From a virus: DNA of 64,000 bases. Location: the IMG/VR virus record IMGVR_UViG_3300044712_000499, positions 15,490-79,489 of that record. One strand, written 5' to 3'. Position 1 is the first letter of the stretch. Each line of letters opens with the position of its first letter. Made by a program: the position numbers and the translations under genes. Positions 2,940-62,887 of the stretch are shown here, piece by piece. The notes below the pieces were generated by a model. That model had not been told where the DNA came from, did no database searches, and saw nothing but the letters and a program-made list of their open reading frames with translations.

Positions 2940-3030
2940 CTAACTTTGGTGGGACTCATTAAATAGTCTTAGATAGTAGTAGTATTACTATCATTATTAG
3001 GATATTCTTAATGCTTTAGCGGGGTCGGAA

Positions 3031-3333
3031 TTATTCTATTTCTCCGGTTCTTCGAGCCTCATTAATGTCATCATGTATTTCGTGATATTCCTCTTCCTCT
3101 ATTTCCTCGTCTGTTACATCCCTTACTGCTTTCTGACATCCTCTAATATGACCCTTGTAATAGCCACATTCAGGGCAGTTATCCTTGCTTACTGTAGAAT
3201 CAAAGTATAAACCAAGCATTAATGTTTGCTCTTCTACCCACTTATCAAATTCAATAGGTTTCATTGTTTGCATGTCGTAATCATGCGCCCTGTATAGAGC
3301 ATTTGTAATATATTGTATTAAATCTTCTTTCAT
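3031..3333 (-). CDS. Hypothetical protein with CxxC...H..C cluster (possible small terminase by position only)
   Basis: 100-aa ORF, CPECGYYKGHIRGC, acidic tail, upstream of terL. Confidence 0.55.
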   Translation of the reverse strand: MKEDLIQYITNALYRAHDYDMQTMKPIEFDKWVEEQTLMLGLYFDSTVSKDNCPECGYYKGHIRGCQKAVRDVTDEEIEEEEYHEIHDDINEARRTGEIE

Positions 3334-6103: not shown

Positions 6104-6622
6104 TTACTGTTCTGTACTAGATGTGGTTGTTCCTGATTCGAGAAGGTCTTCTATATCCTCAAGTGAATATTTGACAAGAACCTCTCTGCGTTTAAATGCC
6201 CCGTTTCGATAGCACATCCACACATATTCAGTGGGTCTCGGATTGTACCTGTCAAAGTAAGCAATACAACTTACCGGTAATGTGGTATCCACTGTCAGAG
6301 CATCGGGGTTATTGTGCTTGCAAATAGGTAAAGTAACCATGTTTGAATGAAAAGGGACATCGTCTGTAGCTATAATGGTTGCTACTGCAATGTAGGCTTT
6401 ACCATAACTCCACCCTTCTCTCCTATCTACCTCATTATCGAAGAACTTAAACCAAGAAGTGGGAACTTGAATTGTTGAATCGTTGCCCTCGATAAGATCA
6501 CTAATCCTATTGGGGTTGATAAGAAACTCACGATAGCCTAAAAGCCTTTCGTCGAGAGGTGATACACGGTAAGCAGAATCACGCTTATCGCTCCAAGAAT
6601 AAAATTTTGTATTTACAAACAT
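6104..6622 (-). CDS. Hypothetical protein (paralogue of 5609-6085), Ser/Thr-rich tail
   Basis: As above; ends SGTTTSSTEQ; own promoter at 6660-6667. Confidence 0.7.
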   Translation of the reverse strand: MFVNTKFYSWSDKRDSAYRVSPLDERLLGYREFLINPNRISDLIEGNDSTIQVPTSWFKFFDNEVDRREGWSYGKAYIAVATIIATDDVPFHSNMVTLPICKHNNPDALTVDTTLPVSCIAYFDRYNPRPTEYVWMCYRNGAFKRREVLVKYSLEDIEDLLESGTTTSSTEQ

Positions 6623-6698
6623 TTTTTTACGTTTTAAATTATCTTATAAATCTTGGATGCAAAGATAACTAAAACTTAGAATATGACTTTAGCGGGTC

Positions 6699-9830: not shown

Positions 9831-10069
9831 AATTGTTCAAACATTAGCTTGTTATACTCTTCTTCATTAAGAGTTATACCCCTTATCTTTTTTCCGCAAG
9901 AGGGGCAGTAGTTAACATGGAATCCCCCTATGCAAGCCATGGTATATTTTTTAGTACCATCCTCTTCATAGAAATACCACTTAAATGTTGGGAGTATTTT
10001 CTTTATGGGCTCACAGCAAAATTCAGTTTCCATTTTTCTTATCTTTATTTTCAAACCATATTTCAACAT
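9827..10069 (-). CDS. Small Cys-rich hypothetical protein
   Basis: FCC and YCPSCG motifs. Confidence 0.6.
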   Translation of the reverse strand: MLKYGLKIKIRKMETEFCCEPIKKILPTFKWYFYEEDGTKKYTMACIGGFHVNYCPSCGKKIRGITLNEEEYNKLMFEQL

Positions 10070-10280
10070 CCGGTGTAACGCCTATTTCATGCTCAATTTC
10101 CCCATCGAACTCTATAAGTAGTCTATCTCTCTTAGTCTTATTAACGTAAGAAATAGATAATACCTTTAGCGGGGATGCCATACCTGCCCTAAAGAAATGA
10201 TCACCAACTATGTAGGTAGTACTGATTATATCTCCCGACACGGGGACTTTATTGAAGCGGATGCTCGTTATTTCTTTCAT
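10023..10280 (-). CDS. Hypothetical protein
   Basis: 85-aa ORF in a tight operon. Confidence 0.6.
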   Translation of the reverse strand: MKEITSIRFNKVPVSGDIISTTYIVGDHFFRAGMASPLKVLSISYVNKTKRDRLLIEFDGEIEHEIGVTPDVEIWFENKDKKNGN

Positions 10281-11440: not shown

Positions 11441-12223
11441 TTAACCTTTGGTGGTTTCAAGTAATTCAAATTGTTCTATAACTTTAAATATCTGTAACGC
11501 AACGCCTGGTACTATCGCATTGCCATAAGCCTTTATAGATTCTCTTCTCCATTCTGAAACGGTAATTCCGTCCATTGCGGTGGAAACCCCATCATTGTTG
11601 CTAACAACGTCGGATTCGGATATACGGTACGCTTCTTGAAACCTATTCTGTAGTTCAGAAAATGTTTTAATTGACTTTTCCACCTTTCTCTGTTTAGTGC
11701 AGACTTTGGTGTGCTCCCTTTCCAATCGCTTGTTGTTGGAGTAGGCAATAAACCATACCCTATCTCTGCTATGGGGGGCATCAACGGCACAAGCTGGAAG
11801 TATAATCGGTTGTACGACGTACCCTTGAAGTTCCAGGTCAGTACACACCTGCTCGAATACCAATCCCCCGTTCCAATTAACAATTCCATAAACATTTTCT
11901 CCCACAACCCAAACCGGTTCAATCTGCTTAATAACTTCAAGCATTCGAGGCCAGAGATGGCGGTTATCATTCGTGCCCTCTCTTTTTCCCGTTTGGCTAA
12001 AGGGTTGGCATGGAAACCCTCCGGTAAGTATGTCAATTCTTCCTCGGTGAATAGAGAAGTCTGTTTTTGTGATGTCTCCATAACTTATTGCATTAGGCCA
12101 GTAATATTTTAAAACTTTTCGTCCAAATTCATTCCATTCACAATGAAACACATTATTCCATCCCATCCATTGAGCAGCCATATCAAATCCGCCAATCCCG
12201 CTAAAGAGTGAACCATGTCTCAT
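11441..12223 (-). CDS. dcm: DNA cytosine-5 methyltransferase (alpha-type chain lacking an obvious motif IX)
   Basis: Motif I FSGIGG, IV GFPCQPFS, VI ENV, VIII SRDRVWF, X AYGNAIVP. Confidence 0.92.
   Translation of the reverse strand: MRHGSLFSGIGGFDMAAQWMGWNNVFHCEWNEFGRKVLKYYWPNAISYGDITKTDFSIHRGRIDILTGGFPCQPFSQTGKREGTNDNRHLWPRMLEVIKQIEPVWVVGENVYGIVNWNGGLVFEQVCTDLELQGYVVQPIILPACAVDAPHSRDRVWFIAYSNNKRLEREHTKVCTKQRKVEKSIKTFSELQNRFQEAYRISESDVVSNNDGVSTAMDGITVSEWRRESIKAYGNAIVPGVALQIFKVIEQFELLETTKG
11533..12081 (-). CDS. Overlapping alternative-frame ORF, putative MTase beta subunit carrying motif IX
   Basis: 182-aa ORF nested in dcm; LLPTPTTSDWKG and NPTLLATMMGFPPQWT resemble the motif IX GFP..W segment. 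Confidence 0.55.
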   Translation of the reverse strand: METSQKQTSLFTEEELTYLPEGFHANPLAKREKERARMITAISGLECLKLLSRLNRFGLWEKMFMELLIGTGDWYSSRCVLTWNFKGTSYNRLYFQLVPLMPPIAEIGYGLLPTPTTSDWKGSTPKSALNRERWKSQLKHFLNYRIGFKKRTVYPNPTLLATMMGFPPQWTELPFQNGEENL

Positions 12224-12653
12224 ACCTCCAAAAGTAAATCAAATTAATTAAATATCCAAATCTTTAGTAGGTTTTGTTTTAAACTTTAGCGGGTTTGCTC
12301 ATAAAAGAGCATAGTATGGGCTTTTGTTTTGCATTTGGTTTCTCTCAATTTTGAATCTTTTAACTCTCATCCGAGAACCAAAGAAGAATCTGCTATTGTT
12401 TCGCTCAACTCTGGGTGGTAGGCATAGTCCCCCTTACCCCCACAGCCTTTATGCCATGGAAGTAGCCTACCACCCGTCGTCTCGCTTACAACCCTTCATC
12501 TTGTAATATCCTTCATACTACCGAAAACAAAAACCCGACCTCTACTGGCTCGATTGTTAATGTTTTTGATACCGTAACAATTATGGTATCCCGCTTATGT
12601 GGTGGCTTGGCGGGCTCATCGCCACCTAAAGATTATATGAGTTATGGGAAATG

Positions 12654-13503: not shown

Positions 13504-14415
13504 TCTAGCTGTTGGCATCATTATTCCTGATTTACACTTTAGTGGGGTATCCACCTTACGACTACGGCAGATAGCACCACAGTCTTTGCACCTAAAGGCT
13601 AAGTACCTATTAACAGATGTAGAGTAGTGACCGCACTCATCAATATTAGTTGAACCGCAAGTAGGACAAGATGGTTCTATTGACTCCTGGTAGATAGCCA
13701 TGTTAGGATGAGACTTTATATAAGGTCTTAGGAATACGTATGCTTCTTCTTCAAGTAGTACGTCCTTCTTATTGTAGGTTAGCATCTCCTGTAATCTTTC
13801 CGGTACTCCCTGCATACAATCAAGCCATAGTTGATATTCTGTATGAATCTTTCTGTCGTGCAATAGAAGTTCGCTTATGTAGTCTAGTTTGTTGGACGCA
13901 AACCTGAAGTTCTGTTGTGCTATTGTAAGTGTATCTATGGTGCGGTATGGTGATGGTGGTGCAAGTTTATTAACAATGAAGCGAGTCTGCGCCTTAGGGA
14001 TATCAAATCGGTTTATGTTGTGACCTATAACTACATCGCATTGATCTAAAAACTTCCACAGTTCTCTTGCTATGCGTGAGTCATCTCTATTTACAGCCTC
14101 TTCGGGAGTGACAACAGACCCATAGACCTTAGAATCAAATAACCACTTCCATGAGTAGGATAACATGAACCAATCATTGATTACCTGCTCATAACCTATC
14201 CTTTGCTTCCATGTACCCCATACGTTAACCTGCATAGGGCTAGTCTCGATATCTAAGATACCTACTTTAGGTTGTTTTGTTTCCCAAAATCTTTTCTTTC
14301 TTTCGTAGCGTCTGAGTGTTTCGGCTGTAATGCCAAAGTGTTGGAGTGTTTCTGTTTCGCCATTTTCATTTAAGAAGGCAAGTACTTTTTCTAGATATTC
14401 TATGCTTACAGCCAT
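13501..14415 (-). CDS. DEDD/RNase H-like 3'-5' exonuclease with N-terminal HTH-like and C-terminal Zn-finger regions
   Basis: LDIETSP, GHNINRFD, DTL, YNKKDV; CPTCGS...CKDCG. Confidence 0.8.
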   Translation of the reverse strand: MAVSIEYLEKVLAFLNENGETETLQHFGITAETLRRYERKKRFWETKQPKVGILDIETSPMQVNVWGTWKQRIGYEQVINDWFMLSYSWKWLFDSKVYGSVVTPEEAVNRDDSRIARELWKFLDQCDVVIGHNINRFDIPKAQTRFIVNKLAPPSPYRTIDTLTIAQQNFRFASNKLDYISELLLHDRKIHTEYQLWLDCMQGVPERLQEMLTYNKKDVLLEEEAYVFLRPYIKSHPNMAIYQESIEPSCPTCGSTNIDECGHYSTSVNRYLAFRCKDCGAICRSRKVDTPLKCKSGIMMPTAR

Positions 14416-14720
14416 TATTTATTTTTTTGGTTAGTAGATTTAATCTTTAGCGGGTGTATGAGATCGTCTATGACGGTTAACTCTTTCTTCCAGTCATCTT
14501 CAAAATGGCTTGTACGCCTATCCCTAAACAGTTTTTCGTCACTCATTCTACGAGAGTAACCTTTTGTATAGGCTACAGAGTAAACGCCCTCTAAAGTGTT
14601 ATTTACTATCTCTGTTGTGGGGTTCGTTTTAACTATCCTATCAGCTACAGCTACAAGGTAGTCCTTTGGCAGGGTATGAGGTCTCTTGACCTTTCCTTTT
14701 GACTTCTTCTTTTTCGACAT
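14415..14720 (-). CDS. Basic hypothetical protein
   Basis: Lys-rich N-terminus; promoter at 14737-14744. Confidence 0.65.
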   Translation of the reverse strand: MSKKKKSKGKVKRPHTLPKDYLVAVADRIVKTNPTTEIVNNTLEGVYSVAYTKGYSRRMSDEKLFRDRRTSHFEDDWKKELTVIDDLIHPLKIKSTNQKNK

Positions 14721-15777: not shown

Positions 15778-16041
15778 ATGATACGACAAGAAAGAAGAAG
15801 TTCGCTGAGAGAGATGACCAAAGAGATAAGTAAGTTTGAAAAGACTGGACTTTATAAGTCTATGGTGGGTTATTTCAATAAACTCCCCAAAGATCAATAT
15901 GAACTACTAGAAAAGGGAACGCACGAAAACCCGCTAAAGCAAAACGAGTTTAACGGTTTCATGCGTCTTATGAAAGGTTATATAGAGTTACAGACTAGAG
16001 CTGACTATCTAAGGTCACTCAGAGTAGGCGAAAAGCACTGA
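15778..16041 (+). CDS. Hypothetical protein
   Basis: 87-aa ORF; 3' end overlaps the convergent groES-like gene. Confidence 0.5.
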   Translation: MIRQERRSSLREMTKEISKFEKTGLYKSMVGYFNKLPKDQYELLEKGTHENPLKQNEFNGFMRLMKGYIELQTRADYLRSLRVGEKH

Positions 16042-25829: not shown

Positions 25830-26059
25830 AGTTTAACCTAGAAGACCCCGATGACAGAATGGAGTTTGAGAGATGCACCAAAGCTACTGACCTAGCATTA
25901 GTACTTTGGGAGGTCTACCATAACTCATGGAGGGACATAGAGCGTCAGATAGAGGCAGGGACTATCAAAGAACCACAGGACGCTATAGATGCTTACGTTC
26001 TAGCGATACAAGAACAGATGGACAACCACAACATAATCATTGATAAACTTGTAATCTAA
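25811..26059 (+). CDS. Hypothetical protein
   Basis: A.LKFNL.DPDD..EF pattern. Confidence 0.65.
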   Translation: MATAELKFNLEDPDDRMEFERCTKATDLALVLWEVYHNSWRDIERQIEAGTIKEPQDAIDAYVLAIQEQMDNHNIIIDKLVI

Positions 26060-26256
26060 TGGCAGACATCAGTAAATGTTCGGGTGCTAACTGCCCGCTA
26101 AAGAAAACCTGCTATAGATATACTGCTATAAGCAATGAATACTATCAGTCATATAGTGAATGGTTCCCCGCTAAAGTTAAAAATAAGTGGACTTGCGATG
26201 GATACGAGAGCAACAAAGGACTATGGAGAATATCGATACCAATAAGACATGAGTAA
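26059..26256 (+). CDS. Small Cys-containing phage protein
   Basis: MADISKCSG..CPLK..CYRYTA. Confidence 0.65.
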   Translation: MADISKCSGANCPLKKTCYRYTAISNEYYQSYSEWFPAKVKNKWTCDGYESNKGLWRISIPIRHE

Positions 26257-26734
26257 ACTTAACTTTCTAAAGACATACTTCTCTCCTTTTAAGCCACTAA
26301 AGTTATCGTGGTATTTTGGGAAGACCGCCATAGGTACTCCTTACTTCCTTCCCCGCAGATGGGTAAGGGATAAGACAAGGGAAGGTTTCTCCATTGCCGT
26401 ACCCAAGAAGATAGGCTTTGACTTTGTTGGTCTTGGGTGGAAGACTAAGTGGGAAGCCACCGACTATCGCTTCGAGTGGAGTCCTATGTTGTCATTCGTG
26501 TTCTTCGGATACCAGGTGACAGTTACCTTTGTCGCACCAGAGCTAGACCACTATTGGGAGTGTTGGTTGTACTACGAGAGGAATACCGATAAGTCCAAAC
26601 CTGCTAAAGATCGAATACTACAAGCTAAAAAAGAGTTCCCTTGTATATGGACAAGTTGGAATAAAGATGGAACCAAGAAAACAACAGACTATTGGAATTT
26701 AATATTGAAACCCGCTAAAGCTAAACAGCCATGA
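26249..26734 (+). CDS. Hypothetical aromatic-rich protein
   Basis: 161-aa coupled ORF. Confidence 0.65.
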   Translation: MSKLNFLKTYFSPFKPLKLSWYFGKTAIGTPYFLPRRWVRDKTREGFSIAVPKKIGFDFVGLGWKTKWEATDYRFEWSPMLSFVFFGYQVTVTFVAPELDHYWECWLYYERNTDKSKPAKDRILQAKKEFPCIWTSWNKDGTKKTTDYWNLILKPAKAKQP

Positions 26735-30243: not shown

Positions 30244-30648
30244 ATGACTACCATCAAACCTTATGACACATTAGCCTTGTTTGGTCAATCTGTTACACTT
30301 GCACAGTATAATATTGTCAATGCTTTTAGGATAATGCGTCCTGTATGTAAAAAATACAAGTTAACAGTTAATAGTGTTATTATCTTATTAGGATCAGTAA
30401 TATATAATAAGTATATAGGATCAGGAATGAATAAGTATAACTTTAGGCGGTTCATTGGATATTATAATAGCAATAAGATAGACTATTATATTAATCTATT
30501 GTGTGAACGTGGTTATCTTGTTAAGTCTGATATAATACATGGTAAGGATATATATAAGATTACCGATTCAGGAATGAATGTATATAATGATATTGAAGAG
30601 TGTTATAATAGTAGTCTATATTCTTTTATTAGTAAGTATAATCTTTAG
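30244..30648 (+). CDS. Winged-helix-like DNA-binding protein
   Basis: C-terminal YYINLLCERGYL.K.......Y.IT..G wHTH pattern. Confidence 0.55.
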   Translation: MTTIKPYDTLALFGQSVTLAQYNIVNAFRIMRPVCKKYKLTVNSVIILLGSVIYNKYIGSGMNKYNFRRFIGYYNSNKIDYYINLLCERGYLVKSDIIHGKDIYKITDSGMNVYNDIEECYNSSLYSFISKYNL

Positions 30649-30703
30649 CGGGTTCGTTCATTATCCCCTTATTTATTGAGCCTTTGCGCTGATTACTCAT
30701 TTT

Positions 30704-30729
30704 AAGCCTGTTTTAAGGCTTATTTTTTT
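30704..30729 (+). terminator. Intrinsic terminator
   Basis: AAGCCT-gtttta-AGGCTT followed by a T-run. Confidence 0.6.
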
Positions 30730-30876
30730 GTCTGGTGGTTAGTCCCATTATTTTTAGTTATTGCCTTAAAAGTCTTTATTTGCCTTCAGTCCTGGTTAAA
30801 TAGTTTGTTATTTATTTGCATTTAGACCTTTGGCGGGTGTATATTTGTATCATAATATTAATCAATAATTAAAGAG

Positions 30877-31087: not shown

Positions 31088-31279
31088 ATGAAAACAAACC
31101 TTAATAATACAATTTGTGATTTATGGAATATATCCCGTACAGCTTTAGCGGGTTCTGATTGTTCCCGTTATTCACGGATGATATATATTAAATCTGAGTT
31201 AATCCGCACGTATCCCGATTTAATTAAGGGGATGACTTCAAAACAGATATGGTTTGCTATTGAGGATCAATTAAATTAA
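31088..31279 (+). CDS. Small hypothetical protein
   Basis: MKT start, A-rich leader. Confidence 0.55.
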   Translation: MKTNLNNTICDLWNISRTALAGSDCSRYSRMIYIKSELIRTYPDLIKGMTSKQIWFAIEDQLN

Positions 31280-31286: not shown

Positions 31287-31397
31287 ATGAATACTCTATT
31301 ATATTACTTGCCTTATTTACCCCTCTATTTAATAACTTTAGCGGGCGTAATGATCATACTTAAATCACTTATCAAATGTTTTATTAACCTTAAATAA
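31287..31397 (+). CDS. 36-aa single-TM peptide (not in track)
   Basis: MNTLLYYLPYLPLYLITLAGVMIILKSLIKCFINLK fills the gap exactly. Confidence 0.45.
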   Translation: MNTLLYYLPYLPLYLITLAGVMIILKSLIKCFINLK

Positions 31398-32280: not shown

Positions 32281-32323
32281 ACCTTTAGCGGGAATTTTAA
32301 TATTAACTTAAAAAATAAATACG

Positions 32324-32581
32324 ATGAAAACATTAACAGAATGGGAAAACTCGAAACTGTGTTTATCTAATTTCCTTAATATTGGGGATGAAGTTGACGA
32401 AGATATAACCGAGTATGTTTTATGTGTTTTGCCTCCTGCAACATGGACAAAACAATGTATCCAAATGGGGGAACCATACAGCCATGATAATTTTGGCCGT
32501 GCATGTTATTTAACACTTGAAAGGCCAATATTTGGCAGCCCTTGGATATATACAGGAATTAAACCACGTCCAAAGAATTAA
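32324..32581 (+). CDS. Conserved-looking phage hypothetical protein
   Basis: VLPP......IQMGEPYSH. Confidence 0.65.
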   Translation: MKTLTEWENSKLCLSNFLNIGDEVDEDITEYVLCVLPPATWTKQCIQMGEPYSHDNFGRACYLTLERPIFGSPWIYTGIKPRPKN

Positions 32582-34103: not shown

Positions 34104-34412
34104 ATGAAAAAAGATGATTTTAAAACTGATGTTATGTTCAGAATAGAAAAGCACGGGGAGCTCAAAGATGAAATTTTAGCAGTATTCCCGCATGAAGTGA
34201 ATGATTATAAAGGGAATGTTGTGGCCTATGTTCATATCGGACAACACACAAGCGCAGATTATAACTATGTGCTACAAAGGACAAGACCCGCTAAAGAAAT
34301 AGACTACATGCCATTAAAAAGGGAATTAGAGTCTATTGGCTATAATCTTAAGATAGTCAAGAAACGCAATTACAACAGGTATTTAACCGAACTTAAAAAA
34401 GCAAGGGCATGA
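34104..34412 (+). CDS. Conserved-looking phage hypothetical protein
   Basis: V.FR......LAVFP...Y.HIGQH..A...EL..IGY.L. Confidence 0.68.
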   Translation: MKKDDFKTDVMFRIEKHGELKDEILAVFPHEVNDYKGNVVAYVHIGQHTSADYNYVLQRTRPAKEIDYMPLKRELESIGYNLKIVKKRNYNRYLTELKKARA

Positions 34413-37785: not shown

Positions 37786-38322
37786 ATGAAAACCTGCTCT
37801 GAACCTGGATGCAATAACAAACCTTTCAATGAGTACTGCCTATATCATCAGTACAAATTACGTATGAAGGGAGGACGCTTATATAAACAAAAGCGTAAAG
37901 CTAAAGCCCCTATCCCACGAGAGAGCAGGAAACGCAAAGAAGAGAGAAAGATATACACTGAGGTATGTGACCTACTAACAGAAGAAATAAGAGCAAGTAA
38001 TGATGGTAAGGTGCATTGTTTCTTTAGCGGGCTTGAGATAACAGCCAAAAGGCCACACTACCACCATCTAAAGTCAAGAACAGGGGACTATTACACAGAT
38101 AAGGAGTGGTTGGTTCCATCCTTAGATGAATTTCATGTGGACGGGTATCACAGCAAGTCAGTTGAGTGGCTACTACAACAGAAATGGTACACCGATGTGT
38201 TTTTACCTAACCTGCTAAAGAAAGATAGAAAACTATACGATAAAGAGATAGATAAGCGTACTAAGTCAGAACCTATCAATCCCCGTAAAGGCTATACACT
38301 ATTTGAAGATGAAGATTACTAA
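37786..38322 (+). CDS. Putative HNH/NinG-like nuclease with N-terminal Cys/His knuckle
   Basis: CSEPGC...YC..H; CFFSG...HYHH...H...YH. Confidence 0.5.
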   Translation: MKTCSEPGCNNKPFNEYCLYHQYKLRMKGGRLYKQKRKAKAPIPRESRKRKEERKIYTEVCDLLTEEIRASNDGKVHCFFSGLEITAKRPHYHHLKSRTGDYYTDKEWLVPSLDEFHVDGYHSKSVEWLLQQKWYTDVFLPNLLKKDRKLYDKEIDKRTKSEPINPRKGYTLFEDEDY

Positions 38323-41891: not shown

Positions 41892-42290
41892 ATGAGACTC
41901 GCCTCCAAAGATAAAGAGCATATACGCTACATAAGACACTTATTCTTACAAGGAAAGTGGATAGCAATGTGTAATGAGATATGGTACTATGGCGAGTTTG
42001 ACTTTGCATACGATTTCTTACGTCATGTCCAATATAAGTACAAAAATGAACATTACGCAAGTTCAATGTACAGAGAATTGATAGATATTTACTTTAGCGG
42101 GCAATATAATCCCAATCTAATGAATCCAAGTGAGGGAAAGCCACGCAAAGACCGATGGATGGAGTTCTATATGGGGAATAATGAGGGAATAAGTGAGGGA
42201 TTAAATGAGGGAATAAAATCAACATCAAAGATAAAAACAAAGAATATCTCAAAAAAGTTGCAGAAAATTTTGGAAAAGAATAATATTTAA
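41892..42290 (+). CDS. Hypothetical protein with short C-terminal EG repeats
   Basis: 12-bp tandem units (A/G)TGAGGGA(A/T)TAA x3 at 42181-42216. Confidence 0.55.
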   Translation: MRLASKDKEHIRYIRHLFLQGKWIAMCNEIWYYGEFDFAYDFLRHVQYKYKNEHYASSMYRELIDIYFSGQYNPNLMNPSEGKPRKDRWMEFYMGNNEGISEGLNEGIKSTSKIKTKNISKKLQKILEKNNI

Positions 42291-44257: not shown

Positions 44258-44505
44258 TGGACTGCGACACCATAGTAAACATACGCATAGTAGTCAGATG
44301 GTTTCTTGTGGCTTTGTCTGTTAGCTCTATTACTTTTATATTCTACTATCTTTCCTGCTGTTTTAGTAAGAAGAAGTGGTGTAGGATAGCTTTGGTGGGC
44401 ATACTACTAGCAATCTCTGTTACGGTGTATGTGATGACGCATAGACCCGCTAAAGTTGTACAAATGAGAGAAGATGTACTTTATATAAAACCAAGCGATG
44501 AGTAA
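44254..44505 (+). CDS. 2-TM membrane protein
   Basis: Two hydrophobic helices. Confidence 0.6.
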   Translation: MMDCDTIVNIRIVVRWFLVALSVSSITFIFYYLSCCFSKKKWCRIALVGILLAISVTVYVMTHRPAKVVQMREDVLYIKPSDE

Positions 44506-44797
44506 GTTCTTACGTAGTCTAACCGATGGTTCATTGCGTTGCCGTTACTGCGGAGATAAGGTATGTAACTGTATGGAGGATGGTATCACAACAGTTAATT
44601 TTATTGCTATTTGGAAATATGGGGATAAGGGTACTTCCATGTGCGTCCAGTTAGCAAAGCAAAAACTCCCTAATGGTAAGAAAATACCTAGCGGTCATAA
44701 GCTATGGATACCACTAAGTGTCATTCATGGATGCGATGACAATCTTAAAAAGATGGGTATAGATAATAGTTATCTGAATAAACTCAGATTTGATTAG
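44498..44797 (+). CDS. Hypothetical protein
   Basis: CxxC...C.C N-terminus. Confidence 0.55.
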   Translation: MSKFLRSLTDGSLRCRYCGDKVCNCMEDGITTVNFIAIWKYGDKGTSMCVQLAKQKLPNGKKIPSGHKLWIPLSVIHGCDDNLKKMGIDNSYLNKLRFD

Positions 44798-45092: not shown

Positions 45093-45455
45093 CTGTTATT
45101 GATAGGTAATGCGAAGGACTCAAAAACAAATTAGACTTAATGCCCCGCTAAAGGGATACTGTAATAATCCAATTCGCATTGCCTATTCAGTAGCCCAAGG
45201 CGGGGTTTCTTATAACTTATTCTTCCCCATTGCTGATTATATCGAGCAGAAACAAAGCAAAGTACAGTTTGTAGTATTGAATGAGATAAGTAAATCTGTG
45301 CAACGTCCGTGCGACCTGACGACATAGTGGGTTATGTCCTGTAAAGGATAATTCAACATTCAACCATTGAACCTAATGGGTGGTACTAACAAGCTGAGTG
45401 CAAAAAGAGGCAACCAAGGGAAGATAACCCTATAGAGGTCGCCTTGCACTTTACT
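45093..45455 (+). ncRNA. Candidate large structured non-coding RNA (~360 nt)
   Basis: Begins right after TACCTTTG (45082-89); 14-bp stem 45102-45115/45173-45186 with a G-U pair; several more hairpins; 3' long hairpin AGTGCAA...TTGCACT. Confidence 0.45.
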
Positions 45456-49710: not shown

Positions 49711-49798
49711 TCTGAAATACGATTGCCCGCTAAAGAGAATATCTAAATAAGAGTTCTCTTTTTTGTTTGTATCTTTGTACATCTTAAAAGAGTAAGTT

Positions 49799-56227: not shown

Positions 56228-59200
56228 CTATTTTACGCTATTCGTTTTTTCATCTCTTAACTGACGTTTCATTTGTTTCTCGGCTCTTTCCCTTGCTTTA
56301 GTCCACTCCTCATCAGTTTTGTTGTCAAATCTTGTCTTACCATTGTCCATTATGCGCTTCTTATCCTCCTTAACTCTTTCTTTATTGTCTATGTAACGCA
56401 TAATCCTTTCGTGGTAGTGTTCCATGGTAAGTTGATTGTATTCCACCATCTGAGACTTATCTAGTTTAGTCTTCTTATCTCCGTCCTCAATCTCGATAGC
56501 GGTCATCTCTGGTTCTTTGACGGCATCAGTGCTTAACATTAAGTCCCAGTCCTTTGCATTAGTCTTTTTGAAGTCATACCATCTAAATAAAGCTGTCCTT
56601 GCACTCTTGCGGGCATCAGCCCACATCTTCTCTACATCAACCTGTAATCCCGTCTTAACTTCAGTCTCACCTTTATAGTTCTCTGAGCTTATTAAGTCCT
56701 TCTGTCTCTTTGATACTTTAGCGGTATCTCCCATGTAAGCCTCTAACTTATCAGAGAATAATCCTCCTGCTAACTTAGTGTAGTCGTGAAGTTCCTTAAC
56801 CTCCAGTGTGCGCTTCTCTACTCCGTCCTCTGTATCAATATAAGTAGTGGTATTCTGTACTTTGTTGGGTATTGCGTTATTGTCGGCAAGGAATCTCCAA
56901 CGAGCGTCATCACCCTTGATATTAAACCAATGGGTGTAAGGTAATAGTGCCTCACCTGGATATGTCTTAACCTCATCACCTAACTGATCCATGGTCGGAT
57001 AGTTAACGAAATGCTGAAGTCCGGCAGAGTAAGCCAAGATACTCTTAATGTCTTTCTGTGAGTAGGAAACGGGGTCAAAGAACTTCCATGTCTGCTGTAC
57101 TAAGGCTGAGTTCTGCGGTAGCGGTCTAAGTGCAAATCCAAGATAAGTCTTAGCCATTTCCTGTCCTGCTCTCTTCCATCCACCCTCTTCCATGGACATA
57201 GCATCAGTAAGGAGAGTAAGTAGGTTCTGAGTACCTTGAACGAAGGACATATCTTTTGTCATCAGAGCTGTGTTGGCTACGGCATCCAAGAGCATAGTCG
57301 CTGCAAGCCTGTTAGAGATTTCCTCTGACGGCATCTTCATCTTAATAGCATCGTTGATATTACCGATAAGACCAAGTGGAATAGCTAGTGCAGGTATGTT
57401 AAGATAACTTATTTCAACATCTCCAATTCTTAGCGTATATTTAGGCATCACGTTCTCTCTGCCGCCCTTCTTAAATCCTTCCTGATTGTAACCACCGGAT
57501 ATCTGAACATAATCTTCATCATCACTACCGAGGAACATCATTGCAAGGGCTGTAAAGCTCATTGTTCCTAACCAAGCCCTCCCCATCTGTTCGTAGTAGA
57601 GATTGCTTCCTTTCTTACCCATCTGAGCCGTCATAGCATCAGGGTTCATCTTCTTCTTGATACCTGATACACTATATCCATTAGCTCTAAGGAATCCATA
57701 GAAAGGTACATGGTCTAGCATATACTCGGTTACGTTTCCTACTATCTTAGTAAAGGGGATGAAGGGTTTAACTATTACTCCCATGGATGGATTAGAGTTA
57801 GATAACATCCCTATAGCATTAGCGAGCGTAGCCACTATACCACCTCTTGTGTCGGTAAAGATATTTCCCTGTGCAAGTCTCTCAGCGTCTAGCCTCTCTT
57901 CTTCGGTGATAGGAAGTTGTTTAACCATCAACTCACGCATCCTTATCTTCTTCTGCCTATCGGTAGTCTCCTGACCTGTGAGTTCTTTAAACTTAGCTGC
58001 TTCTGCCTCTATCTGTGCGTTTAATGCTTCTTTGTCAACCTTCGTACCTTGTAGTTCATCCATTACTGCGGTTGATAGAGCCTGTCCTGTAAGGTTCTGA
58101 GTATTGGCAAGATTACGTCTTATGATACTAGCTACCTCCATCTCGAAGATAGTGTTGAACATTAGGCGGTCTTGTGCAGATAGGTTGCGTCCTGAGTACT
58201 TATTAAGGTTGAATATGTTAAGGTCTATCCCACCTACCTTAAGTGGCTTGAACCGTTTTCCTTTACCAAACTTATCTCTTTCGAGTTGTCCTACTCTAAA
58301 CTGTTTACTTTTAGTTATCTCCTCAATGTACTTACTCCCTACGTCACCATTCTCGTATATCTCTGCTGCATCAGTAGCCCCATGAGCAATACCTTGTAAC
58401 ATCGGCATGTAGTACATCTCTCCACCAGGCATGTAGACTTCACCACTCGGATTGTTACTCTTAACTGCCCTTAACCATCTCGACATGTTAGTAGCATCCC
58501 TCAGTGGTTTGAGTAGAATATTACTTCCCGAACTCCAAAGGTTAAGTATGGTAGTGAAATATCCGAATAACATATTAGAGTAAGAGAGAGCTATCCATGT
58601 CTCTGCCCATTCATTGAACTTACTTGTTGGGTTTAGTTCGTAGAGATACTTAGTTAGGTCTTTGACGGCTTCCCTGTAGAACCACCCCTTATCTGTCATC
58701 TGCTGAACGACACTAGCTTTCTGCATAATGATACGTCCCTGCTCTGATGTTATCTCCGGTGCAAGTCCAAACTTATCAGCAAATAGCCCACGATAGACAT
58801 CTTCTTCAAGCGCACCAAGGTTTACAAGTTCAATAAGCCTATCAAGTCTTGTCTTCTTCTTCTTATCGGTAGGTACTTTCTCTTTACCTAGTAGGTTAGC
58901 AAGGTCTTTAAAGGACTTTAGTCGGTCTTGTATCCTCTTGTTGTACTCGGTAAGTATTGCAGTCTCTAGTTTCTTAGCCTCTGCTTCGCTTAACCCCGCA
59001 TCGTCTACTAACTTCTGAGCAAGAGTACGTCCAAGTTCATCCCTTTGCGACCAGTGCATCTTAACTATATCACTGATGCGTAGTTTGAGAGACTTCATCT
59101 CCTCAGTTAGACCGACAGAGGCTTCCTGTTCTCTCATCCATGAACGGAAAGTCTGATTACCTTCTTTCTTAGTACTCAGTATAGGGTCTATGTCGTCTTC

Positions 59201-62200
59201 TGTAACGGTAATACCAATAGCCTTTAAGTCATCTATCAGCTTATTGATTACATCTACTGCTCTGTAGTACCCTTCTCTTACATAACTAGCAATAAGATTA
59301 CCTCCTAGTTCTATCTGTTCAGCCGTTAGCGGGATGCCTGCCTGTAAAGTAACCTTCCCCTGTGACTTACGGTAATCATCAAGCAATTTCTTCCGATAAT
59401 CCTTTTCTGCCTTGACTTGTTCTTTAGGTACAGTCTTTTTCTTTGCGGGTTCTCTCTTGACATTAGGCTTATCAACGGGCATCTGAGCCTCTATCTCTTT
59501 ACCGGCAAGTATATCGTCAATAACTTCCTTGCTCGCATCAGAGAGTTGCTTATAAACCAAGTCGAGTAACTGCCCAATGCTCTTATCTCCTATCTTACGA
59601 TTTAACTTAACTCGGTTAAACTCTGCTATATGACGCTTGGCGAACTCTAACAGTCCTGCGGGTTGCATGACCTTCCAAAGATTTAAGTGAGCGTTACCCT
59701 GTCCTGTCTTGTTAGCTTCAATGGATATTCGTTCTTGTAACTTATTGGTAGCTATGTAAGCATTATCCTTTTGTTCTTTGGTGGCTTTCGGGTCTCCAAG
59801 AATCCTTGTATAGTGATCTATGAGAACCATTCTTGCTACCTGATATGTAGGATAATTATCAATATCCATTACCTTGGTAGGTTGTTCTAATTGCCTCGTG
59901 GCAGCATCAACTCCCCTTTCTTCAATAAACTTATTAGCGTTCTTAACTGCTTGCTCTCCATGAAGGGTGTCATAAAAGCCTTTATTCTCATTTATAATAT
60001 CAGAAAGTATCTGCTGTTGTTCGGTCTCTATCTGACTTAAGGAACGCTCTTGTGCACCGAGGGGCTTTTGTCCCTGTTTTTCACTCTCTGTAACGTCAAT
60101 TTGACCACTTTCGGGTGGCGGTGGTACATTACCCTCGCTTGGGACTTGAGTGGCTGTATCAGTCGGTAATGTTATTCCTTCTCCCGTGACGGTTTCCACC
60201 CCGTTTTGCGCAACGTCCCCCACTTGTACGCCATTTTGCGTTCCTTCGACCAATTCGGGTGCTGTTGTAGTTCCTTGTCCAACTTGCGTTCCAATTCCTT
60301 CGGCATTTTGTTCACCTCCTATTTTTGCTTTTGGTTTCTTTATCTTTGGTACTTCTTCTATACCAACTGGAATAAACTGACTCTTATTCGTAATCTTAAA
60401 TTCCTGTTGATTGTCATGGAGGACATTGATCTCATTATTACCCTCTGCTAAATTTTTTTCATTAACGGAAATAAAACCTCTATAAACAACAGGCTGCTTA
60501 CCCCTTATCCATGCGTATAACATGGCAAGTTTTTTACTTCCGGTAAAGTGTAGTGTTTTTGTTTCTGTGACTGAGGGGTCTAATCCTTCTACGTGATATT
60601 GACCCTTGCCCGAATAAACCAATAAAGGTTCTCCATTTCTATCTAAGACTAAACTGCCCTCTCCCGACTGCCAATCACCGAACTTAGCCTTGAACTCAGG
60701 TGTGCGTACAAAGGCATGGTTTTCAGGAGATAAATTAGACTTCTCTCCATTAGGGGCAGTCTGATTCGCTACCTGTTCTTCAGGAGTTACTACTGGGGTT
60801 CTGTTTCCAGTTCTTCTTTGCTCATAGACCCGTCCCACCTGTCCATCATTTCCTTCAATTTCTTCGGGTCTAATTTCGCTAATTCCGCCTGAAGCATCTG
60901 TTCCATACTCTCCCACTGCGTCGGGATTGCTTTGTCTGCTTGCTCTTTCATTTACTGACTGTTTTATTAAGTCTATATTCTTTTGCCTATCGGCTATTTC
61001 TTCTTCTGTTGCACCTTGTTCACGAAGCGAAGATATGGTATTATTTTCAATTTCGCTAATATTTTCTGAATTAATTTCAACATAGGGTACTTTAGGGGGC
61101 TTAAGATACTCTTTACTTTTGGCATCAACTACCTCTTGCGGACTCCCTTCGGGCACACCAAAGGTCTGTCTCTGACCATCATCCTTGACTACATTGAACC
61201 AATCTCTTCCGTCTTTAGTCTCTAGTGGGGTTATAGTCCCTGCCGGTTCATCTGTCTTTTCTGCTGCCTTTAGGTCTTCTATAGCTTTTAACTGTTCTTC
61301 TTTAGTAGGTTCAACCTTTGGTGCTTCCTCTTTTGGTTCATTCCCTTCGGCTTCTTTGACCTTTTCTTCCTCTATAGCTATCTGCTCATCCTTGATGCCT
61401 TGTATTTGGTCTTTAATACCCTTAATGGTATTTTCTAAAGCAGGAACTTCTTGCTCTGTGACTTCTTTATTGTCAATTTTGGCTTGTAGTTCATTCCAAA
61501 CCGAGTAGAGTTCTGCTACCTGTGCTTGCTTCTCAGGAGACAATTTAGTTGCAAGTTCATAGTTAGCATCCATTACCTCATCAGCCTGTACTCGTAAGTC
61601 TTTTATACTTCTCTTTAGTGCGTTCTTTACGGGGTCACTGTCTGTTTGGTCTAGTTGATCTATGAGAACCTTCTGCTGATTAAGATTATCTTGCACCTGT
61701 TTAACTTCCTTGTCGGATGCAAGCGTCTTACCCATAAGAGATGCAAGTGGATTCGCTGCACCACCAACGAGACCAAAGCCTAATCCTCCAATGAGCATGG
61801 CATCAAACACATTATCGAATACTCCTGCATTAGGGTTCTTTCCGGTTACTATATCTGTTATGTTCTGACCTATCTGAGTAATACCCTCTGAACTTGATTC
61901 AAGACCTACTGATGTAGCAATACCCTTTGCAATATCCTTTGCCCCTGACGGAGTTATTTCTTTTATTAGCCCTTTTTGAAAGGCAGTACCGATTCCTCTA
62001 AATATATAAGCCGATGCGAGCTCTCCAAGTGCTTCAAAGCCTCCGTACATCCATGCGTTAAGAATCTTACTTCTCTCGGTAGGCATATTCTCATTCTCTG
62101 CGTATTGCTGTGATGCCGATACTGCGCCTATAGTTCCGAGTGTTGCTGCTGCCCCACCTCCTGCCGTAGCTGCCGTAAGAGCAAGTAATGGGACTGATGC

Positions 62201-62887
62201 AACCGTACCCCGCCCAAACTGTTCAAGTGCTGCACCTATATTTTTCTTTCCGTCTTCTCCCTTAGTTAGATTCTCCCAAATATTGCCTTCAATTTGGTGC
62301 ATTTCTTCTTCTATCTTTTGCGCTCTTTTATTTAGTGGTGCTTGTGCCTCGGATAACTGAAGCATTGATGCGCCTGCGGGATAGGTAGATGAAATATTAT
62401 TTAGGGCTAGTTCGGCATCTCTGTCGTTTCCACCCATGCTTTTAATAAGAGGACGCATGATAGACCCCGCTAGAGTTCTATTAACCATCTGAGGTGTAGC
62501 TAATACTGCACCTGCTGTTTTTAATGAATTAGATTTTAAAGTACGGAATAGATCACCAAGTACGCCTGTCTCTCTTGGCTTCTCAGCCGATGGTGATTGT
62601 GGTTGTGCCGTTAAAGGCTTTCCCGATGCGTCTAAGAACGGTAATTCCTCTTTGCCAGACGTAGGAGTGAGAGAATCCAAGACAGAAAAGGATTTTTTTT
62701 TTACGAGTCCCATGTCCCCAATGAAAGTATCATAGTCGGGTAACTCGTATCCTTCTCCTACTAGACTATCATGTAATTTCTTAGACTTTAGCGGGTCGGA
62801 CATATCAGTCTTGAATGTACCGTAATCAGGTAGTTCGTATCCCTCTTTTACTAGGTTGCTATGTAGTGTTAATAACTTCTCTTCCAT
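56228..62887 (-). CDS. Large polyvalent virion/DNA-ejection protein (2219 aa)
   Basis: Duplicated N-terminal LH..LV.EGYELPDY.TF..DM, Gly/Ala TM-like region, internal SNL...VRTPEFKAKFGDW...D.NGEP ART-like module, long helical C-terminal part. Confidence 0.72.
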   Translation of the reverse strand: MEEKLLTLHSNLVKEGYELPDYGTFKTDMSDPLKSKKLHDSLVGEGYELPDYDTFIGDMGLVKKKSFSVLDSLTPTSGKEELPFLDASGKPLTAQPQSPSAEKPRETGVLGDLFRTLKSNSLKTAGAVLATPQMVNRTLAGSIMRPLIKSMGGNDRDAELALNNISSTYPAGASMLQLSEAQAPLNKRAQKIEEEMHQIEGNIWENLTKGEDGKKNIGAALEQFGRGTVASVPLLALTAATAGGGAAATLGTIGAVSASQQYAENENMPTERSKILNAWMYGGFEALGELASAYIFRGIGTAFQKGLIKEITPSGAKDIAKGIATSVGLESSSEGITQIGQNITDIVTGKNPNAGVFDNVFDAMLIGGLGFGLVGGAANPLASLMGKTLASDKEVKQVQDNLNQQKVLIDQLDQTDSDPVKNALKRSIKDLRVQADEVMDANYELATKLSPEKQAQVAELYSVWNELQAKIDNKEVTEQEVPALENTIKGIKDQIQGIKDEQIAIEEEKVKEAEGNEPKEEAPKVEPTKEEQLKAIEDLKAAEKTDEPAGTITPLETKDGRDWFNVVKDDGQRQTFGVPEGSPQEVVDAKSKEYLKPPKVPYVEINSENISEIENNTISSLREQGATEEEIADRQKNIDLIKQSVNERASRQSNPDAVGEYGTDASGGISEIRPEEIEGNDGQVGRVYEQRRTGNRTPVVTPEEQVANQTAPNGEKSNLSPENHAFVRTPEFKAKFGDWQSGEGSLVLDRNGEPLLVYSGKGQYHVEGLDPSVTETKTLHFTGSKKLAMLYAWIRGKQPVVYRGFISVNEKNLAEGNNEINVLHDNQQEFKITNKSQFIPVGIEEVPKIKKPKAKIGGEQNAEGIGTQVGQGTTTAPELVEGTQNGVQVGDVAQNGVETVTGEGITLPTDTATQVPSEGNVPPPPESGQIDVTESEKQGQKPLGAQERSLSQIETEQQQILSDIINENKGFYDTLHGEQAVKNANKFIEERGVDAATRQLEQPTKVMDIDNYPTYQVARMVLIDHYTRILGDPKATKEQKDNAYIATNKLQERISIEANKTGQGNAHLNLWKVMQPAGLLEFAKRHIAEFNRVKLNRKIGDKSIGQLLDLVYKQLSDASKEVIDDILAGKEIEAQMPVDKPNVKREPAKKKTVPKEQVKAEKDYRKKLLDDYRKSQGKVTLQAGIPLTAEQIELGGNLIASYVREGYYRAVDVINKLIDDLKAIGITVTEDDIDPILSTKKEGNQTFRSWMREQEASVGLTEEMKSLKLRISDIVKMHWSQRDELGRTLAQKLVDDAGLSEAEAKKLETAILTEYNKRIQDRLKSFKDLANLLGKEKVPTDKKKKTRLDRLIELVNLGALEEDVYRGLFADKFGLAPEITSEQGRIIMQKASVVQQMTDKGWFYREAVKDLTKYLYELNPTSKFNEWAETWIALSYSNMLFGYFTTILNLWSSGSNILLKPLRDATNMSRWLRAVKSNNPSGEVYMPGGEMYYMPMLQGIAHGATDAAEIYENGDVGSKYIEEITKSKQFRVGQLERDKFGKGKRFKPLKVGGIDLNIFNLNKYSGRNLSAQDRLMFNTIFEMEVASIIRRNLANTQNLTGQALSTAVMDELQGTKVDKEALNAQIEAEAAKFKELTGQETTDRQKKIRMRELMVKQLPITEEERLDAERLAQGNIFTDTRGGIVATLANAIGMLSNSNPSMGVIVKPFIPFTKIVGNVTEYMLDHVPFYGFLRANGYSVSGIKKKMNPDAMTAQMGKKGSNLYYEQMGRAWLGTMSFTALAMMFLGSDDEDYVQISGGYNQEGFKKGGRENVMPKYTLRIGDVEISYLNIPALAIPLGLIGNINDAIKMKMPSEEISNRLAATMLLDAVANTALMTKDMSFVQGTQNLLTLLTDAMSMEEGGWKRAGQEMAKTYLGFALRPLPQNSALVQQTWKFFDPVSYSQKDIKSILAYSAGLQHFVNYPTMDQLGDEVKTYPGEALLPYTHWFNIKGDDARWRFLADNNAIPNKVQNTTTYIDTEDGVEKRTLEVKELHDYTKLAGGLFSDKLEAYMGDTAKVSKRQKDLISSENYKGETEVKTGLQVDVEKMWADARKSARTALFRWYDFKKTNAKDWDLMLSTDAVKEPEMTAIEIEDGDKKTKLDKSQMVEYNQLTMEHYHERIMRYIDNKERVKEDKKRIMDNGKTRFDNKTDEEWTKARERAEKQMKRQLRDEKTNSVK

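Follow-up and report, generated by a model that had tools for sequence, protein, structure and literature searches.

What does a single asymmetric 10-bp word do when it recurs more than twenty times in one phage genome, and what reads it? The word CTTTAGCGGG raised this question in the stretch of DNA analysed here, a window of 64 kb that covers positions 15490-79489 of the circular genome (82,580 bp) of a soil Bacteroidota phage. The earlier note on this DNA had described the repetition and offered a Chi-like site, an uptake-like sequence, a packaging or replication signal and a binding site for a phage protein as possible explanations.

Abundance and shape of the word

By exact search, the window contains 21 copies of CTTTAGCGGG, 12 on the plus and nine on the minus strand; dinucleotide shuffles average 0.08 copies and never exceed 1, which bears out the over-representation claimed in the earlier note. 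All 20 coordinates given there proved correct, while a minus-strand copy at 12197 had been missed; among its one-mismatch examples, those at 11362, 30828, 42476 and 45857 are true, whereas 8929 is a two-mismatch copy (CTTTAGCGTC). Allowing up to one mismatch, we count 47 matches in the window where 2.3 are expected. The entire circular genome carries 23 exact copies (14 plus, nine minus; about 0.1 expected) and no copy of the reversed control word.

None of the simpler explanations that had been put forward accounts for these counts. Markov models of order 1 to 5 predict between 0.08 and 2.7 copies for the genome, and an order-3 simulation yields 0.05 exact, 4.4 one-mismatch and 48 two-mismatch copies, to be set beside 23, 35-36 and 112 observed. 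Shuffling synonymous codons within each gene (1000 trials) leaves 0.92 in-gene copies on average and never more than 6, compared to 13 in the real genes. As this shuffle falls short, and as copies occur in two frames per orientation and also between genes, selection acts on the DNA rather than on the encoded protein, in line with the original suggestion. An assembly artefact is likewise excluded because the word recurs in independent assemblies, and there only in those of related phages.

CTTTAGCGGG is an asymmetric 10-mer with sharp edges. Information content drops to background on both sides, for which reason an extended or composite motif was rejected, and the sites show neither a palindrome nor conserved flanks, the flanking positions displaying a weak A/T preference at most. 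No second conserved element or partner half-site was found at a fixed distance. A literature search for the word returned chance primer matches only, the INPHARED collection contained no near-identical phage, and scanning the window against Rfam and for tRNAs gave no match.

Placement of the sites in the genome

The sites are not scattered at random. Ten of the 23 exact copies are intergenic, although only 10% of the genome is (p 2e-4), and 12 are found in the 120 nt ahead of a start codon, compared to 17.5% of random positions (p 1.6e-4). Just three of the 23 fall into structural and lysis genes, although these account for 38% of the genome (p 0.008), and sites are depleted in the structural genes of the related phage G002 as well. 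The placement of CTTTAGCGGG thus matches where regulatory sites sit. An even spacing, as considered for priming sites, was rejected, since the sites cluster. Coordinates and surroundings are compiled in the table below.

Table. The 21 exact copies of CTTTAGCGGG in the window and associated features, in window coordinates.
Feature	Position	Strand	Context
Exact site	3014..3023	+	Intergenic, ~100 nt upstream of large-terminase start; CCCGCTAAAG along transcription; 74 nt before TATCTTTG -7 box
Exact site	6687..6696	+	Intergenic; 19 nt before TATCTTTG -7 box; 64 nt before start of gene 6104-6622
Exact site	10164..10173	+	Within ORF 10023-10280 (-); imperfect inverted partner CCCTAAAG 13 nt off
Exact site	12197..12206	-	First codons of C5 DNA methyltransferase gene (11441-12223, -)
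Exact site	12284..12293	+	Intergenic; 47 nt before TACTTTTG box of methyltransferase gene
Exact site	14445..14454	+	Last codons of gene 14415-14720 (-); 29 nt before start of DNA polymerase exonuclease-subunit gene
Exact site	15930..15939	-	Within ORF 15778-16041 (+)
Exact site	26094..26103	-	In ORF 26059-26256; first member of direct pair 73 bp apart
Exact site	26167..26176	-	Second member of direct pair; 72 nt before start of gene 26249-26734
Exact site	26711..26720	-	Last codons of 26249-26734; 10 nt before ATG of 26731-27075
Candidate reader gene	30244..30648	+	134-aa MarR/SarA-like winged-helix protein
Exact site	30643..30652	+	Spans stop codon of winged-helix gene (CTT TAG CGGG)
Terminator-like hairpin and T-run	30703..30729	+	Just 3' of winged-helix gene; read from sequence
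One-mismatch site CTTTGGCGGG	30828..30837	+	2 nt before TATATTTG -7 box (30840-30847)
Exact site	31143..31152	+	In AT-rich island; orientation = transcription
Exact site	31336..31345	+	Intergenic; 60 nt before start of 31406-31879; orientation = transcription
Exact site	32283..32292	+	Intergenic; 31 nt before start of 32324-32581; orientation = transcription
Exact site	34287..34296	-	Within 34104-34412; G002 orthologue has one-mismatch copy at matching position
Exact site	38022..38031	+	Within conserved HNH/NinG-like gene 37786-38322
Exact site	42092..42101	+	Within 41892-42290, right after DnaB-like helicase gene
Exact site	44446..44455	-	Intergenic, leader position: 59 nt after TAGCTTTG box start; 42 nt before start of 44498-44797
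Exact site	45144..45153	-	Intergenic, leader position: 62 nt after TACCTTTG box start
Exact site	49726..49735	-	Intergenic; 34 nt before TATCTTTG box; 63 nt before start of 49799-51055
Exact site	62786..62795	+	~100 nt into 5' end of 2219-aa virion-protein gene (56228-62887, -)

Several sites adopt geometries like those of operators. The one at 6687 overlaps the -33 region, as follows from its distance to the -7 box, and that at 30828 lies right against the -7 box of the first promoter to follow the winged-helix gene, an arrangement that recurs in the relatives L032 and G004. Those at 44446 and 45144 occupy leaders, and the inverted pair 12197/12284 flanks both promoter and start codon of the methyltransferase gene. 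The gap between a site and the Bacteroidota -7 box TAnnTTTG ranges from 2 to 74 nt; a fixed spacing was looked for and not found, so there is no single promoter geometry. Read as CCCGCTAAAG, the word is co-directional with transcription at 16 of the 23 exact sites (p 0.09) and opposed to it at seven, and this mixture argues for a reader acting at the DNA level and against one acting on RNA. Around the genome, site orientation switches in four or five blocks, and there is no single end or origin about which the 23 sites fall into a bipartite pattern.

The winged-helix gene and the phages that keep the word

Among the non-structural genes common to all four complete or near-complete motif-bearing genomes, only one encodes a recognised DNA-binding fold. 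Its product shows a weak Pfam match to Staph_reg_Sar_Rot, and its AlphaFold model (pLDDT 80) features N- and C-terminal helices, a helix-turn-helix and a beta-wing. The top 49 Foldseek matches of this model in the PDB are all MarR-family proteins, Hpr/ScoC and RovA included, with TM scores of 0.47-0.69, and a complex prediction of the homodimer scored 0.35, below the mark of 0.42, which counts neither for nor against a dimer. Homologues fall into about 104 clusters; one search with the protein as query returned itself only, and an alignment of 29 homologues diverges too strongly to guide a scan for loci. Orthologues are encoded in G002, G004, G009 and L032. The gene was found in every relative that bears the motif, and three partial relatives devoid of the word are devoid of the gene, too.

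Word and gene are also physically tied to each other. The 3' end of the gene reads CTN-TAG-CGGG in G000, G002, L032, G009 and L159/L160 and TTA-TAG-CGGG in G004, placing the stop codon within a site whose position is kept in at least six lineages. In L032, G004 and G009 a second copy lies inside the gene, 86 bp upstream, and 25 of 26 sites just downstream of it share one orientation across five phages. No strong site is present at the gene's own promoter.

Looking for the same word in related phages, as had been proposed, was successful. It is kept, exactly or as a close variant (CTATAGCGGG, CTTTAYCGG), by relatives whose proteins are 30-60% identical, in a family of ~80-kb Bacteroidota phages from soil and freshwater. 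G002 has 26 sites with at most one mismatch compared to five for the control word, and G004 has 35, mostly CTATAGCGGG, compared to three. Exact copies number eight in G009, nine within 12 kb of L032 and two within 2.9 kb of L159/L160, while L021 carries nine copies of CTTTAYCGG in 20 kb. Variation is mostly confined to the AT half of the word, a pattern to be expected were this half recognised in the minor groove. Conservation of the word exceeds that of the winged-helix protein (30-45% identity) and of the phage proteins in general, which would also fit a conserved reader encoded by the host.

Second words of the CCTGAGTT type in G004 and L021 were rejected as tandem coding repeats rather than dispersed sites. 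A viral scan for direct pairs likewise yielded mostly coding tandem repeats (PAKEE-like), with G009 as the only true relative. In L035 the word CCTTTAAGR stands beside the winged-helix stop codon and may be a variant site; we left it uncounted because most of its copies lie 2-10 nt before an ATG and may be ribosome-binding-like. Homologues of the sugar C-methyltransferase led to nothing beyond more phage-like contigs and fragments of Bacteroidales MAGs.

A proposed operator-like network and its alternatives

The word is real and selected as DNA, it is conserved yet drifting within the family, and it has a physical link to the winged-helix gene. The reading that we prefer, and to which we give about an even chance, is that the CTTTAGCGGG sites form an operator/stoperator-like network read by the phage's own winged-helix protein. 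Among the options listed in the earlier note, a phage-protein binding site is the best candidate, with the protein at 30244 as its probable reader. The two other candidates named there are disfavoured: the DnaA-IV-like protein (39815) has no detectable homologue in G004, which is 97% complete and carries 35 sites, and the recombinase has none in G002, which is weaker evidence as G002 is only 77% complete. We infer that the winged-helix protein is the most likely reader of CTTTAGCGGG and that its binding would cause repression. Mechanistically, the word would be a cis-acting protein-binding site on double-stranded DNA, held by selection, of which one winged-helix lobe may read the GCGGG half in the major groove while the wing may read the CTTTA half in the minor groove. 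Sitting on, beside or just past host-type promoters and at gene junctions, the bound protein would block initiation or elongation, and the two dozen sites together would make up a single regulon for the timing or silencing of phage transcription.

Such a network has a counterpart in the Cluster A mycobacteriophages, where L5 gp71 and the TipsytheTRex repressor act through operators and stoperators: in L5, more than 20 dispersed copies of a 13-bp asymmetric site occupy promoters and short gene junctions, the consensus drifts among phages, the near-uniform orientation relative to transcription is needed for function, and the reader is a monomer with a helix-turn-helix and a 'stoperator' domain from a temperate phage (PMC9283540, PMC6550527). 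The present phage shares with L5 the short asymmetric site (10 bp here), its dispersal in more than 20 copies (23 here), the location in promoters and short intergenic spaces and the consensus drift among relatives. It differs in that 16 of 23 sites are co-directional with transcription and a conserved block is opposed to it, in that the candidate reader has a predicted MarR fold of 134 aa instead of being a gp71-type immunity repressor, and in the host phylum, Bacteroidota.

Phage P1 offers a second comparison, as its C1 repressor acts on about 20 dispersed asymmetric 17-bp operators over a genome of ~90 kb, which encodes a tyrosine recombinase and is not integrated into the chromosome. Number and asymmetry of the sites, genome size and tyrosine recombinase are alike here; in contrast to P1, the site is shorter, and we identified neither a C1 homologue nor a partition system or plasmid replicon. 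Lysogeny is hinted at in our genome by the tyrosine recombinase only, and none of 185,579 species genomes yielded a prophage relative with the terminase or a terminase alignment as query, both of which count against the preferred reading. The lack of integrated relatives suggests a plasmid-prophage lifestyle as a possibility.

Other observations count against the preferred reading as well. MarR-family dimers normally bind (pseudo)palindromes of 16-20 bp, usually at the regulator's own promoter. The candidate reader resembles this family in its predicted fold and its weak SarA/Rot Pfam match, whereas the sites are some 23 lone asymmetric 10-mers, one of them at the gene's 3' end, and the promoter of the gene has no strong one. 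Unlike L5 stoperators, the sites lack a uniform orientation with respect to transcription, and their distance to the -7 box varies.

Four alternatives were weighed, and all of them we rate weaker than the operator reading. A host factor might read the word, either as a Chi-like site of an AddAB/RecBCD-type nuclease or as an uptake-signal-like word shared with the host, which we consider quite unlikely. The Chi sites of B. subtilis and S. aureus are AGCGG and GAAGCGG, respectively; the AGCGG core of our word equals the former and is contained in the latter, and like Chi it is an over-represented, G-rich and asymmetric word, besides being more conserved than the phage proteins. Yet it is 10 bp long, and a protective or uptake word should not crowd between genes and before starts while being sparse in large structural genes. 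Our word is also tied to the stop codon of one gene, at an exact position kept in six lineages. The block-wise orientation without replication- or end-related polarity and the shifted consensus words of relatives also speak against a host reader, and the same distribution makes a packaging role a poor fit. Uptake signals (USS/DUS) occur about once per kb all over the host genome and often as inverted pairs. Weak evidence against a host word comes from a metagenome scan restricted to such inverted pairs, which gave at least 120 isolated hairpins on unrelated contigs of 29-65% GC, almost none with further copies nearby, and no motif-dense low-GC bacterial contigs.

We are just as sceptical of a link to replication, in which the copies in and after the winged-helix gene would form an origin together with its initiator and the dispersed ones would be secondary boxes or priming sites. 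Origins that go with an initiator gene are found in lambda (O/ori) and SPP1 (G38P/oriL), and in a similar manner the gene of the putative binder holds sites inside and at its end, followed by direct repeats and an AT-rich island in DNA of 31-33% GC, with site arrows diverging from the locus in several phages. The repeats are, however, spaced by 86-950 bp instead of the ~20 bp of iterons, and the winged-helix protein is predicted to have a MarR fold, which is not a known initiator fold. Sites are unevenly spaced on either strand, a single bidirectional origin fits the orientation of only about 12 of the 23, and replication genes differ among relatives while the word is unchanged. A phage-specific promoter core, fired in the CCCGCTAAAG direction by a sigma-like factor of the phage or an unrecognised RNA polymerase, would explain why 16 of 23 copies point along transcription and why many lie 10-100 nt ahead of start codons. 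It is nevertheless very improbable in view of the seven exact copies and the conserved run after the winged-helix gene that are oppositely directed, the lack of a second element at fixed distance and the ~36 intergenic host-type -7 boxes that already explain the promoters. Neither an RNA polymerase nor a sigma factor was recognised, and the large proteins show no DxDGD-type catalytic motif; the idea that the 2219-aa or the 1625-aa protein is a virion RNA polymerase of the crAss type was rejected for want of a family match and a catalytic Asp motif. We see the slightest chance for site-specific single-strand nicks, as known from T5 and LUZ24, introduced by the HNH/NinG-like nuclease (37786-38322), which all relatives conserve, or by another phage HNH enzyme. 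Short, exact and asymmetric words are typical of nicking enzymes, and the HNH/NinG-like protein belongs to the small non-structural core common to motif-bearing genomes; its putative assignment as a nuclease comes from language-model and fold likeness, and nicking would leave the enrichment before starts and the tie to the winged-helix gene unexplained.

A bolder form of control, which we regard as unlikely, would be an orientation-coded system of Bacteroidota phages acting genome-wide. Here the MarR-fold protein would read the asymmetric 10-mer via a single lobe, and the direction of each site would decide the outcome, for example by stopping RNA polymerase, or the machinery of replication or recombination, from one side only; the conserved orientation flip at the regulator gene would then divide a permissive early from a gated middle/late domain. 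If true, this would constitute both a new mode of DNA recognition in the MarR family and a new timing of phage gene expression.

To our knowledge, hardly anything is known of how phages of Bacteroidota, the crAss group apart, regulate their genes. The present family offers a concrete, testable candidate regulon, in which some two dozen mapped sites share a 10-bp word with a single candidate reader and relatives supply natural variants of specificity. Should the reader be a host factor instead, the word would mark an unknown Chi-like or uptake-like signal of soil Bacteroidota. Binding of the word by the winged-helix protein, if true, would have three consequences. Genome-wide control in the style of L5 and P1, through dispersed asymmetric operators, would gain a phage group and a host phylum in which it is new; the MarR fold would be seen to work on a site without palindromic symmetry; and Bacteroidota genetics would obtain an orthogonal protein-operator pair.

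Abundance and anatomy of the word

The asymmetric 10-mer CTTTAGCGGG or its complement occurs in 21 exact copies in the window, where dinucleotide shuffles average 0.08 and never exceed 1, and 47 matches are found versus 2.3 expected when up to one mismatch is allowed. The over-representation described in an earlier note on this DNA is thus confirmed. All 20 coordinates listed there proved correct, but a minus-strand copy at 12197 had been overlooked, and 8929, named as a one-mismatch example, carries two mismatches. The complete 82,580-bp genome, of which the window covers bases 15490-79489, contains 23 exact copies of CTTTAGCGGG, where 0.08 to 2.7 are expected from Markov models of orders 1–5; the reversed control word is absent from it. 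Simulation at order 3 yielded 0.05 copies without mismatch, 4.4 with one and 48 with two, while 23, 35–36 and 112 were observed. Codon-preserving shuffles, which the note had considered as a way to explain the count away, do not account for it either, with 13 intragenic copies compared to a mean of 0.92 and a maximum of 6 in 1000 synonymous shuffles. As the intragenic copies furthermore occupy both possible frames in either orientation, selection acts on the nucleotides and not on the protein, as had been proposed. The conserved block comprises exactly 10 bp, with information content at background on either flank apart from weak preferences for A/T 5' of the C and for T 3' of GGG. Neither a palindrome in the word nor a second element at fixed distance was found in the site alignment.

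The phage stems from a rhizosphere metagenome, and the 127-bp "direct terminal repeat" of its record, which has a common assembler k-mer length, is probably the assembler overlap of a circular genome rather than real ends. Based on our own gene calls, genes run leftward to ~14.7 kb of the window, those between 14.9 and 53.5 kb run rightward, and the remainder are leftward again. Annotated genes encode a large terminase, HNH and GIY-YIG endonucleases, a C5 DNA methyltransferase, a DNA polymerase exonuclease subunit, an SSB, a DnaB-like helicase, a PD-(D/E)XK nuclease, a tyrosine recombinase and a GH108 lysin. The glycan operon includes a sugar C-methyltransferase whose homologues, 55–76 % identical, belong to comparable GT2/TOD1-MUCI70/methyltransferase operons on further contigs of phage size, which suggests that such a glycan-assembly module is common in this phage group. 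Judging by their sequence, the promoters used are of Bacteroidota type, with TATCTTTG among the most frequent 8-mers (38 copies) and 36 intergenic co-directional TAnnTTTG boxes. Bacteroidota mostly lack Shine-Dalgarno sites; AAACAAGAGA, present in 10 copies genome-wide, precedes the ATG of at least eight genes, the terminase among them, by 0–4 nt and resembles a translation-initiation word tied to gene starts.

Placement relative to genes and promoters

Of the 23 exact copies, ten fall between genes or across a gene end, compared with an intergenic share of 10 % of the genome (p 2e-4), and 12 lie within 120 nt upstream of a called start codon, compared to 17.5 % of random positions (p 1.6e-4). 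Structural and lysis genes, 38 % of the genome, harbor only three (p 0.008), and are likewise depleted of sites in the relative G002. Read as CCCGCTAAAG, 16 of the 23 sites are co-directional with transcription (p 0.09). Several occupy operator-like positions at host-type promoters, as listed in the table, including an inverted pair of exact sites with starts 87 bp apart and 77 bp in between, whose geometry would suit repression by looping. As the spacing to host-type promoters is not constant, the word is no fixed element of the core promoter.

Coordinates of sites and associated features (window positions unless indicated)
Feature	Coordinates	Description
Site	6687	overlaps −33 region; 19-nt gap to TATCTTTG
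Site	12798 (genome)	directly 5' of TTTG-N20-TATCTTTG promoter
Site	30828	abuts −7 box
Sites	44446, 45144	in leaders, ~60 nt past −7 box
Inverted pair	12284 and 12197 (12197-12293)	flanks C5 methyltransferase promoter (TACTTTTG) and start codon
Winged-helix gene	30244-30648 (+)	134-aa protein
178-aa protein gene	37786-38322	contains an exact site
DnaA-IV-like protein	39815	
Sugar C-methyltransferase	18843-20057 and neighbours	glycan operon
AAACAAGAGA	2918, 11390, 15666, 16298, 38375 and others	before ATG
CCTGAGTT repeats	G004 (L016) 28827-29259 (record)	27-nt units
CCTGAGTT repeats	L021 16570-16840	15-nt pentapeptide-repeat units
CTTAAAGG	L035 7434-8993	in contig with a distant winged-helix homologue
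CTTTAGCGGG array	L171 (G010) 2492-2868	21-kb viral contig

Conservation in relatives and the winged-helix gene

Syntenic relatives were retrieved by terminase-based searches of IMG/VR, and G009 by a motif-first scan. G002 (77 kb, terminase 59 % identical) contains 26 sites with up to one mismatch versus 5 for the control, following a looser consensus CTTT[A/T]GCGGG, and G004 (86 kb, terminase 50 % identical) contains 35 versus 3, with CTATAGCGGG as the most frequent form (10) next to four exact copies. Eight exact copies are found in G009 (85 kb), nine in a 12-kb piece of another relative (L032) and two in the 2.9-kb contigs L159/L160, while L021, part of an 83-kb contig, lacks the word and carries nine copies of CTTTAYCGG in 20 kb. 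As three more distant, partial relatives contain no copy, the word is a property of one phage family, drifting mainly in its AT-rich half. An apparent second dispersed word sharing CCTGAGTT in G004 and L021 turned out to consist of long in-frame tandem repeats. The unrelated contig L171 carries five copies of CTTTAGCGGG, all on one strand and 72–145 bp apart with extended conserved flanks (caattcc...tagac), in an iteron-like array.

The 134-aa winged-helix protein shows a weak SarA/Rot Pfam match, and the top structural neighbours of its confident model (pLDDT 80) are all MarR-family regulators. An exhaustive profile search returned ~104 homologue clusters. Its gene is present in G002, G004, G009, L032, L159/L160 and L021, and was not found in the partial sequences of the three motif-free relatives. 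The reading frame ends in Leu-stop, CTT TAG followed by CGGG, so that the stop codon falls within a site. This end is identical in L032, G009 and L159/L160, and reads CTC TAG CGGG in G002 and TTA TAG CGGG in G004; more distant homologues keep Leu-TAG and have lost CGGG. In L032, G004 and G009 there is a further copy 86 bp 5' of this one, within the stretch of the gene that encodes the wing. Small genes in an AT-rich island (GC 31–33 %) follow directly 3', and the sites there are oriented with transcription in 5/5 cases here and in L032, 8/9 in G004, 3/3 in G002, 3/4 in G009 and, for the L021 variant, 4/4, while sites immediately 5' of the gene are mostly in opposite orientation. At the first promoter past the gene, this phage and L032 have a weakened site 2–3 nt 5' of a TATATTTG box; at a downstream promoter of G004, an exact site lies 4 nt 5' of TATCTTTG. 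In L035, several small genes in a row have CTTAAAGG 2–10 nt ahead of their ATG; this is either a sequence resembling a ribosome-binding site or the counterpart of CTTTAGCGGG in that phage.

Candidate readers and interpretation

Among the phage proteins previously suggested to bind the word, the DnaA-IV-like protein is disfavoured because no homologue was detected in G004, which is 97 % complete, and the recombinase, more weakly, by its absence from the 77 %-complete G002. The winged-helix protein is the best candidate. Both G002 and G004 lack the C5 methyltransferase. Non-structural genes common to this phage, G002, G004 and G009 encode the winged-helix protein, SSB, the polymerase exonuclease subunit, two glycosyltransferases, a GroES-like protein, the 178-aa protein and a few small unknowns. 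Of these products, the winged-helix protein alone shows a recognisable fold for sequence-specific DNA binding. The 178-aa protein resembles HNH/NinG-type nucleases in language-model features and predicted fold; a nicking site for it is a minor possibility.

With about even confidence, we predict the word to be a duplex-DNA binding site for a phage-encoded regulator. This agrees with the over-representation, with selection at the DNA level, with where the sites lie and their mixed orientation, and with the drift seen across the family. Given such a regulator, the MarR-fold protein is a reasonably probable reader. Its recognition helix would read GCGGG while the wing enters the CTTTA minor groove, consistent with drift being mostly A/T swaps in the AT half. 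MarR dimers normally require palindromes, which counts against the prediction, as do the lack of a strong site at the gene's own promoter and the fact that the word is more conserved than the protein. A dimer prediction for the protein returned no verdict either way. The nearest known parallels are the C1 operators dispersed over P1 and the operator-stoperator network of L5/TipsytheTRex. L5 has more than 20 asymmetric 13-bp sites, which occupy promoters and short gaps between genes (PMC9283540). The uniform site orientation of L5 differs from the mixed one here, which also weighs against a regulator.

A host factor reading the word as a Chi-like or uptake-like sequence is unlikely, because the sites are spread unevenly, the position at the stop codon is conserved and relatives have a shifted consensus. 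When metagenomes were scanned for inverted pairs, the matches listed, at least 120, were isolated terminator-like hairpins in unrelated contigs. There, CCCGCTAAAG-loop-CTTTAGCGGG recurs as a hairpin stem in many contigs of 29–65 % GC (L037–L156 among the matches listed, some clearly orthologous copies of a single locus), showing that a common GC-clamped stem is another source of the word. The copies within and past the winged-helix gene adjoin AT-rich DNA, as an origin with its initiator might, but the repeat spacing of 86–950 bp, the protein fold and the genome-wide pattern make this similarly improbable. Least probable of these is a phage-specific promoter, given that the word has no partner element and the phage no recognisable polymerase or sigma factor.

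A literature search revealed no mention of the word in the sense of a regulatory site. Control through dispersed sites as predicted here is a known kind of system; new are its setting in Bacteroidota phages, the MarR-fold candidate reader and the conserved switch of site orientation at the gene for this candidate.
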